Below, piece by piece: positions 21,084-21,782 of a DNA stretch of 64,000 bases. The notes under the pieces were generated by a model that ran no database searches, was not told where the DNA came from, and saw only the letters and a list, made by a program, of their open reading frames with translations. This DNA comes from Escherichia phage vB_EcoM_G2494. Location: sequence record MK327935.1; one strand, written 5' to 3'. How positions within the stretch are numbered: the first letter of the stretch is position 1; every line of letters starts with the position of its first letter. A program made the translations under genes and the position numbers.

Positions 21084-21782
21084 CTAACCACGGGTATAGT
21101 GTTCCAGAACAACTGTCAGATGAATATATTCTAATAAATCTTTCCAAAAGTCAACATCTGGTTCTTCCTGCATACCGTTTTTCTTTGCCTCTTCACGAGC
21201 GAGTTTAACACGCTCGTAGAGATCTTTCAATTCTTCCCGCACATTATCAAAGGTTCTTTCTCCTAACTTACACGCTAAAATAGAAGAACGTCGCGCGAGC
21301 GGGAATTGTAGATCACCTGTCTGATAGATTTCAAGTAGCTGATAACCAACACGCAGAGCATGAGAAAGATCTTTCCAGTTACTGAAATACTTTTCAGATT
21401 TGGCTACCTGCTTTTTGAGATAGCCAGACAAACCCCACATACCAACATGATAGAATTTATCGCGATGTGTTCTGATGTATTCCCATTCTCTGGAGGATTC
21501 AATCAACATGTTACTAGGCGCGTGCACCATGTCAATAGCGCCGATATCGCCTTTACATGCCAGATTGATAAACCGTTTTAGACTGAACATATTAACATCA
21601 ATATCGTCTTTGGTGTTCTTGATACCTTGACCGCTAGTGCTTTGGTCATAGTGTTCTTTCATCGATCCTAAGATAATTTCTTTAGCAGTCGGAACAAAGA
21701 TACCACGATAATCTTTATCTGAATTTTCAGTATCGAGGCCGTATAAGTGAGATCCGAAGACCATTTTAACCATTGTATGCAT
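21084..21782 (-). CDS. nucleotidyltransferase-fold protein (Pol-beta superfamily-like)
   Basis: 232 aa; N-terminal FGSHLYGLDTENSDKDYRGIF matches the G[GS]-x9-13-DxD nucleotidyltransferase signature. Confidence 0.5.
   Translation of the reverse strand: MHTMVKMVFGSHLYGLDTENSDKDYRGIFVPTAKEIILGSMKEHYDQSTSGQGIKNTKDDIDVNMFSLKRFINLACKGDIGAIDMVHAPSNMLIESSREWEYIRTHRDKFYHVGMWGLSGYLKKQVAKSEKYFSNWKDLSHALRVGYQLLEIYQTGDLQFPLARRSSILACKLGERTFDNVREELKDLYERVKLAREEAKKNGMQEEPDVDFWKDLLEYIHLTVVLEHYTRG

Follow-up and report, generated by a model that had tools for sequence, protein, structure and literature searches.

The tRNA repair performed by Pnkp and Rnl1 of phage T4 is a textbook example of phage counter-defence, and nucleases of the RloC type have been proposed to defeat this repair by removing a nucleotide. 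We analysed a gene of Escherichia phage vB_EcoM_G2494 whose product may well be the enzyme that puts such a nucleotide back. The gene lies in a 64,000-nucleotide stretch of sequence record MK327935.1 (hereafter referred to as the window), and it encodes a nucleotidyltransferase of the RlaP family that corresponds to NrdC.11 of T4.

The RlaP family owes its name to the many members encoded in operons with RNA ligases (Burroughs and Aravind). In jumbo phages, the distribution of RlaP mirrors that of RNA ligases, and Iyer et al. (2021) predicted that, ahead of ligation, RlaP restores nucleotides lost to RloC and similar nucleases (PMC7824862). Two Pseudomonas enzymes, PfRlaP and PaRlaP, were characterised in a preprint of December 2025 (Carruthers, Fatma, and Huang; bioRxiv 10.64898/2025.12.29.696909). 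In vitro, they labelled RNA and left DNA and E. coli protein unlabelled, adding one or two nucleoside monophosphates or deoxynucleoside monophosphates to RNA 3'-OH ends, with dATP accepted and Mn2+ as the best metal. Of a cleaved tRNA mimic, they preferred the 5' half to the acceptor end; the labelled species were of the sizes of rRNA, tRNA, and tRNA fragments, with little specificity among nucleoside triphosphates (NTPs). RlaP improved the aminoacylation of repaired tRNA that was short of one nucleotide, and its products were incompatible with the 3'-phosphate ligase RtcB (10.64898/2025.12.29.696909).

The window protein belongs to the same Pfam family as these bacterial enzymes, and the predicted order of its domains and its three putative catalytic aspartates fit the architecture described for them. 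However, it represents a distant subfamily with similarity at the profile level only, placed in another cluster of the published similarity network. The bacterial enzymes are encoded in rtcB-rtcA operons, whereas the window gene is phage-encoded and shares no operon with a ligase in this genome. The partner ligase also differs, being RtcB for bacterial RlaP and, as proposed below, the 5'-phosphate ligase Rnl1 for the phage protein.

The nrdC.11 gene of the window and its family

The gene is an ATG-initiated open reading frame (ORF) on the minus strand, encoding 232 amino acids, with its stop codon at 21084-21086 (Table 1). The DNA of this region is 96-97% identical to that of RB49, ELT4, GEC-3S, Phi1, and approximately 55 further genomes of Krischvirus, the RB49-like T4-type Straboviridae that infect E. 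coli. The RB49 orthologue is RB49p098 (gene nrdC.11, NP_891669.1), for which RefSeq gives the product name nucleotidyltransferase. It also has 232 amino acids, of which 230 are identical (99%; 97.7% nucleotide identity), and it is placed identically, with vs.6 (GrcA-like) on one side and the regB block on the other. The two substitutions, I94V and Q205P, are conservative or neutral and amount to no functional change. Sixteen codons differ between the two genes, 14 of them synonymously and two non-synonymously, giving a ratio of non-synonymous to synonymous changes (pN/pS) of 0.037. The 232-residue ORF is judged to be real, and at a ratio of about 0.04 it is a maintained and functional gene under purifying selection. 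Its base composition is like that of its neighbours, and thus there is no sign of recent transfer.

Table 1. Coordinates of the nucleotidyltransferase gene, its predicted functional parts, and the flanking features in the window.
Feature	Position	Strand	Basis
RlaP-family nucleotidyltransferase coding sequence, short-form RB49 NrdC.11 orthologue	21084..21782	-	ORF list, RB49 comparison, PF10127, phrog_388, AlphaFold2
Shine-Dalgarno sequence GAGGG	21790..21794	-	7 nucleotides 5' of ATG, read from sequence
Codons G10-S11...D22-x-D24, predicted NTP-binding turn and first two metal-binding carboxylates	21711..21755	-	Sequence, conservation, model
D62 codon, predicted third catalytic carboxylate, in I-D-V opening strand 61-67	21597..21599	-	Conservation, model
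Junction at residues ~128-134, KSEKYFS, where T4-type proteins carry the ~95-residue insert	21381..21401	-	Alignment, T4-type model
C-terminal helical domain (residues ~116-232; K137, H141, R144, P161, K172), predicted to form the RNA/NTP-binding side of the cleft, with helix 210-230 as its last element	21087..21437	-	
Terminator-like hairpin and T-run, 10-bp stem with 5 G-C pairs, between the GrcA-like and nucleotidyltransferase genes	21825..21859	-	Terminator scan
Promoter candidate, sigma-70-like and weak (TTGGCT-17-TATGAT with TG), overlapping the tail of the terminator	21813..21841	-	Consensus scan only, 9/12 matches
GrcA-like gene, T4 vs.6 orthologue, C-terminal Gly_radical domain	21869-22285	-	Pfam, RB49 annotation
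RegB endoribonuclease gene	19803-20297	-	PF10715, E 2e-48

The original prediction, made from the DNA letters, had called the product a nucleotidyltransferase of the Pol-beta superfamily on the basis of its N-terminus. The corresponding signature is present: G10-S11 is followed by ten residues and then by D22-K-D24, which fits the pattern hG[GS]-x9-13-DxD. The loose form of the motif (G[GS]x9-13Dx[DE]) also occurs in three other ORFs among the 169 of the window, and it is therefore weak evidence when taken alone. The profile search was more informative. The protein matched Pfam PF10127 (RlaP, 'RNA repair pathway DNA polymerase beta family') with a score of 53.9 bits, above the cutoff of 23 (E 2.8e-14), residues 7-191 covering positions 24-198 of the 249 of the profile. 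It also matched phrog_388 'nucleotidyltransferase' of PHROGs with an E-value of 2.8e-78. NCBIfam gave no match for the 232-residue protein, and the single PADLOC match (E 0.027) was non-significant.

Among 1.8 billion representative proteins searched, 3,414 relatives were found at E <= 0.001, and tblastn matched more than 1,500 phage records with E-values of 1e-30 to 1e-38. In both halves, the T4-type NrdC.11 proteins are 45-48% identical to the window protein, and on this comparison the gene is assigned as the orthologue of T4 NrdC.11 that Krischvirus carries in a short form. NrdC.11 orthologues had been matched to the nucleotidyltransferase domain COG3541 in 2006 (PMC1524935); with this and the RefSeq annotation, the assignment as a nucleotidyltransferase is already known. 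Many GenBank and UniRef records name NrdC.11 homologues 'thioredoxin' or 'glutaredoxin'. These names appear to be an error carried over from the locus name nrdC.11, as the protein is a nucleotidyltransferase without a thioredoxin fold.

Predicted structure and active site

An AlphaFold2 model built on the alignment of 128 clade relatives had a mean predicted local distance difference test (pLDDT) score of 96.2 and a predicted template modelling score (pTM) of 0.92. The model comprises a core at residues 2-95, helices at 98-201, and a terminal helix at 210-230. The core is the five-stranded nucleotidyltransferase sheet (strands 2-9, 23-30, 44-48, 61-67, and 93-95), with the GS turn and helix at 11-14. 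The crystal structure of PfRlaP, compared by its description, has the same order of nucleotidyltransferase domain, helical domain, and terminal helix.

The top neighbours among solved structures were all Pol-beta-type nucleotidyltransferases with a helical second domain, with HalB as the closest and AAD(9), LinB, and Tam41 among the others. Kanamycin nucleotidyltransferase ANT(4') and related antibiotic nucleotidyltransferases share the combination of a nucleotidyltransferase domain with a HEPN-like helical bundle; however, the likeness is at the superfamily level only, with template modelling (TM) scores of 0.37-0.41, 11-12% identity, and no profile match. When searched alone, the helical domain resembled HEPN-type bundles. 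Structure predictions for viral proteins show this fold commonly in phages, giant viruses, and baculoviruses (HE65). A sequence search of the PDB with the single protein and with the 128-sequence profile gave no meaningful match at E <= 10. The HEPN RNase motif (Rx4-6H) was considered for the helical domain and rejected: R107-x4-H112 is present, but residue 112 is threonine in the consensus.

Conservation across the 128 relatives marks the predicted active site. G10 is kept in 128/128, S11 in 125/128, D22 in 127/128, and D24 in 126/128, while residue 62 is aspartate in 126 and glutamate in two. By analogy with the general pattern of Pol-beta nucleotidyltransferases, D62 would be the third carboxylate. 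In the helical domain, K137, H141, R144, P161, and K172 are conserved to the same degree (125-128 of 128). The profile matches, the predicted structure with its Pol-beta-type neighbours, and the near-invariant active-site residues thus bear out the original assignment, and a Pol-beta-superfamily nucleotidyltransferase fold is supported for the modelled protein.

Short and long forms of NrdC.11

The NrdC.11 proteins of Tequatrovirus and other Straboviridae fall in the same Pfam family as the window protein but are longer (approximately 328 residues in the T4 type against 232). The difference is one block of approximately 95 residues after position ~130, which makes the long form (310-350 residues) and is missing from the window protein. 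In the model of a T4-type protein (P0010; pLDDT 94.3), the insert at residues 132-230 is composed of a helix (134-154), three strands (176-200), and a second helix (205-227). The insert looks like an accessory module outside the catalytic unit, since end-to-end agreement with the Pfam model is better for the short form than for the T4 type.

Short forms account for five of the 128 clade representatives. In a rough neighbour-joining tree, they form three separate lineages, each nested among long forms. A related contig (L015) has the gene order of the window (M15 endolysin, Gly_radical, RlaP, RegB, Vs, and TK), and its RlaP protein, which is approximately 50% identical to that of the window, is a long form of 327 residues. 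Because a syntenic relative carries the long form and the short forms are nested among long ones, the short form most likely arose in place by deletion of the insert in the Krischvirus lineage.

Linkage to RNA ligase and Pnkp genes in relatives

RB49 encodes Pnkp (pseT), RNA ligase 1 (rnlA), and a second kinase-like gene. Among the Krischvirus-like records carrying the nucleotidyltransferase gene at >=95% identity, the counts of rnlA and pseT match (58/58). Phage records with a homologue were also counted by genus, taken as the first word of the phage name. The counts for NrdC.11 and RnlA were, respectively, 606 and 636 for Escherichia, 285 and 287 for Klebsiella, 83 and 83 for Shigella, 75 and 77 for Aeromonas, 69 and 69 for Acinetobacter, and 56 and 56 for Enterobacter, which is consistent with co-occurrence of the two proteins.

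Physical linkage was found in metagenomic contigs (L016, L018, L020, and L021) whose RlaP proteins are 38-42% identical to the window protein. L016 carries a cassette at 6651-9817 composed of Rnl1 (PF09511), a 50-residue ORF, RlaP, and Pnkp (AAA_33 and HAD_PNKP). Its RlaP protein (P0137) has 40-42% identity with the window protein in both halves, and its gene sits exactly between those of Rnl1 and Pnkp. This is the clearest physical link of the NrdC.11 clade to tRNA repair genes. Rnl1 is encoded approximately 0.5 kb upstream of the RlaP gene in L018 and approximately 4 kb upstream in L020, and an RNA ligase of PF09414 lies approximately 1.2 kb upstream in L021. Overall, four of eight distinct context types have an RNA ligase gene within 5 kb of the RlaP gene; by a rough estimate, this is an enrichment over the approximately 10% that would be expected of a gene chosen at random from a genome of the size of T4 that holds one or two ligase genes. 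Ligase adjacency is a tendency of the RlaP family that stands outside the Pfam definition, and the window locus does not follow it. No RNA repair genes were found near distant homologues in Bacillus phage Bc431v3, Mycobacterium phage Miley16, and Gordonia phage Blueberry, which is uninformative.

In L019 and L020, the RlaP gene lies near genes of NAD-salvage type, namely NMNAT-NUDIX (CTP_transf_like and NUDIX), NAMPT, and NADAR. This proximity possibly reflects an accessory-gene region shared by those phages.

Proposed function and alternative explanations

The original prediction had left the substrate open, naming nucleotides, proteins, and signalling molecules as candidates. The two Pseudomonas enzymes narrow it to RNA 3'-OH ends, an activity that the phage protein would share by analogy. 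We consider it fairly probable that the window protein, as a member of the RlaP family, adds nucleotides to RNA 3' ends independently of a template and acts as the nucleotide-restoring third step of phage tRNA repair by Pnkp and Rnl1. Addition to RNA 3' ends, nuclease-damaged tRNA as the target in vivo, and the benefit to the phage are all inferred here. In the predicted active site, D22, D24, and D62 would hold two divalent metal ions, probably Mn2+, and the G10-S11 turn would hold the NTP. The RNA 3'-OH would be placed in the cleft between the nucleotidyltransferase core and the helical domain (K137, H141, R144, and K172), where it would attack the alpha-phosphate, and one or two nucleotides would be added without a template. 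During infection, a host anticodon nuclease would cut the tRNA, and a nuclease of the RloC type would also remove a nucleotide. Pnkp would then heal the ends by removing the 2',3'-cyclic phosphate and phosphorylating the 5'-OH, the nucleotidyltransferase would put a nucleotide back on the 5' half and leave a 3'-OH, and Rnl1 would seal the break. The phage setting appears chemically compatible with this sequence of steps, because Rnl1 needs the 3'-OH that the RlaP product has, and the conflict with RtcB would be avoided.

Several points weigh against such a role in tRNA repair. In the similarity network of PF10127, T4 NrdC.11 falls in cluster 5 and the assayed enzymes in cluster 1a, and the function of NrdC.11 is given there as unknown; an untemplated addition would, moreover, mostly restore the wrong nucleotide (10.64898/2025.12.29.696909). 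The window protein is a short form without the ~95-residue module of most clade members, so that it may recognise its substrate differently. On the RB49 map, pseT and rnlA lie approximately 75 kb from nrdC.11 and outside the window, and no ligase gene was found in the examined DNA of the Krischvirus-type (the window, L009, and L015), T4-type (L010), L013/L014, and L019 contexts. The co-occurrence of NrdC.11 and RnlA within T4-like phages may reflect shared ancestry alone. Finally, the nrdC.11-mobD.3 block of T4 can be deleted with laboratory viability kept (PMC9825161); this dispensability fits an accessory anti-defence role but also fits no important role.

The same chemistry could instead serve another RNA pool, with nucleotides added to tRNA 3' CCA ends trimmed by nucleases of the host or to mRNA fragments made by RegB and healed by Pnkp, and with an effect on RNA decay or translation instead of tRNA repair. 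The breadth of RNA sizes labelled by the Pseudomonas enzymes and their low NTP specificity would suit this explanation, as would the missing ligase linkage in the genome type of the window and the position of regB, which in Krischvirus-type genomes follows downstream after three small genes and on the same strand. The proximity to regB is, however, not kept in T4-type phages, and the linkages seen in the clade are to RNA ligases and Pnkp and not to RNases. The characterised enzymes also favour the 5' half of cleaved tRNA over the acceptor end, and one or two added nucleotides would be unlikely to alter mRNA decay. We therefore regard another RNA pool as an unlikely target, though one to be kept in mind. 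Nucleotidylation of a protein or small molecule is considerably less likely. It would make the window protein an MNT-like AMPylase neutralising a host HEPN toxin, an AMPylase like DrrA or GlnE, or a transferase of the aminoglycoside/lincosamide type, as the fold neighbours might suggest; however, these structural matches are weaker than that to HalB and reflect the superfamily fold, and Pfam, NCBIfam, and PADLOC gave no match to such families. Members of the RlaP family left E. coli proteins unlabelled, and the modification of an antibiotic would be of no obvious use to a lytic phage. The MNT antitoxin of HEPN-MNT pairs is a small stand-alone nucleotidyltransferase encoded with a HEPN toxin gene, whereas the window protein has 232 residues with a fused helical domain, and no HEPN match was found among the neighbouring genes.

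The structural likeness to HalB of the Hailong system (PDB 9dbh/9dbi/9dbj) raises the question of whether the protein could be an oligonucleotide synthase. Its products, oligo(deoxy)nucleotides that are free or primed on protein, would serve as a signal, or else as a decoy holding an oligonucleotide-gated effector of host defence such as HalA in the off state. HalB is the closest solved structure, RlaP enzymes accept dATP, and the T4-type and RB49-type proteins share a tyrosine two to four residues from the C-terminus, while HalB primes on a C-terminal tyrosine. Nevertheless, neither the single protein nor the 128-sequence profile detected sequence similarity to HalB at E <= 10, and the structural alignment had only 13% identity with a TM score of ~0.44. 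Tyr229 is shared by close relatives only, with no conservation over the clade as a whole (12 of 61 aligned). Tyrosine is more frequent at column 221 (82/128), but the window protein has histidine there and others have leucine, isoleucine, methionine, or valine; the column is thus read as a packing position in the last helix and not as a nucleophile. The gene belongs to a phage and not to a host-defence context, and its flanks hold a Gly_radical protein and small phrog_6261/15978 proteins with no adjoining gene for a HalA-like membrane protein. The Pseudomonas enzymes, moreover, stop after one or two additions and leave protein unlabelled. A HalB mimic was therefore rejected as the main explanation, as the C-terminal tyrosine is not conserved and no HalA-like neighbour is present, and we give it hardly any weight. 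Equally little weight is given to a bolder proposal for NrdC.11-type enzymes, by which they would be RNA- or self-primed makers of short oligo(deoxy)nucleotides that serve as decoys or signals against oligonucleotide-gated defences. In that case, the short form of Krischvirus would be a version minimised in nature, with an altered choice of substrate. A less radical version is the role proposed above, in which the protein would be the missing third enzyme beside Pnkp and Rnl1 and would let the phage overcome wobble-excising anticodon nucleases such as RloC.

Flanking genes and signals

The gene was originally described as standing beside a GrcA-like gene, and the neighbour does carry a Gly_radical domain (Table 1). 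GrcA serves as a spare part for pyruvate formate-lyase. The adjacency of vs.6 and the nucleotidyltransferase gene is kept in Krischvirus-type contigs down to approximately 50% protein identity (L009 and L015). In T4-type phages (L010), the two genes are not neighbours; nrdC.11 has a different position there, in the order nrdC.10-nrdC.11-mobD, whereas the window has vs.6-nrdC.11-regB. Because the adjacency is absent in T4-type phages, it implies no functional link. A functional link with the GrcA-like gene was accordingly rejected: the adjacency is Krischvirus-type synteny only, and a terminator separates the two genes, to which some relatives add a homing endonuclease gene. The latter gene, of the HNH/NUMOD4 type, stands between the Gly_radical and RlaP genes in L009 (3951-4547) and in phage vB-Eco-KMB43; the window has no homing endonuclease gene at this place.

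Phage GEC-3S has a terminator annotation at the corresponding position. The promoter candidate that overlaps the terminator tail carries no annotation in GEC-3S, and the consensus scan of the region returned 11 sites against 6.9 expected.

Directly 3' of the nucleotidyltransferase gene are three tandem small genes on the minus strand (20230-21062; ORFs 20868-21062, 20626-20886, and 20230-20565). They are paralogues of one another, with cross-matches to phrog_6261 and phrog_15978 and a common motif C[SA]HL-x3-4-W, and similar small genes lie 3' of the RlaP gene in L009 and L015. For RegB, the mechanical ORF has a TTG start and 164 residues, and the RB49 annotation uses an internal ATG that gives 140 residues (METINVH...).

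Significance

The impact on annotation is small, as the protein is already a nucleotidyltransferase in RefSeq, the family is named, and its first biochemistry has been described; the naming of NrdC.11 homologues as thioredoxin or glutaredoxin should, however, be corrected. For the idea of a phage pathway composed of RlaP, Pnkp, and Rnl1, the short form of the RB49 type offers a convenient minimal enzyme, with 232 residues and a confident model. If it is true that NrdC.11 restores the excised nucleotide, a long-standing gap in the tRNA-repair arms race would be closed.

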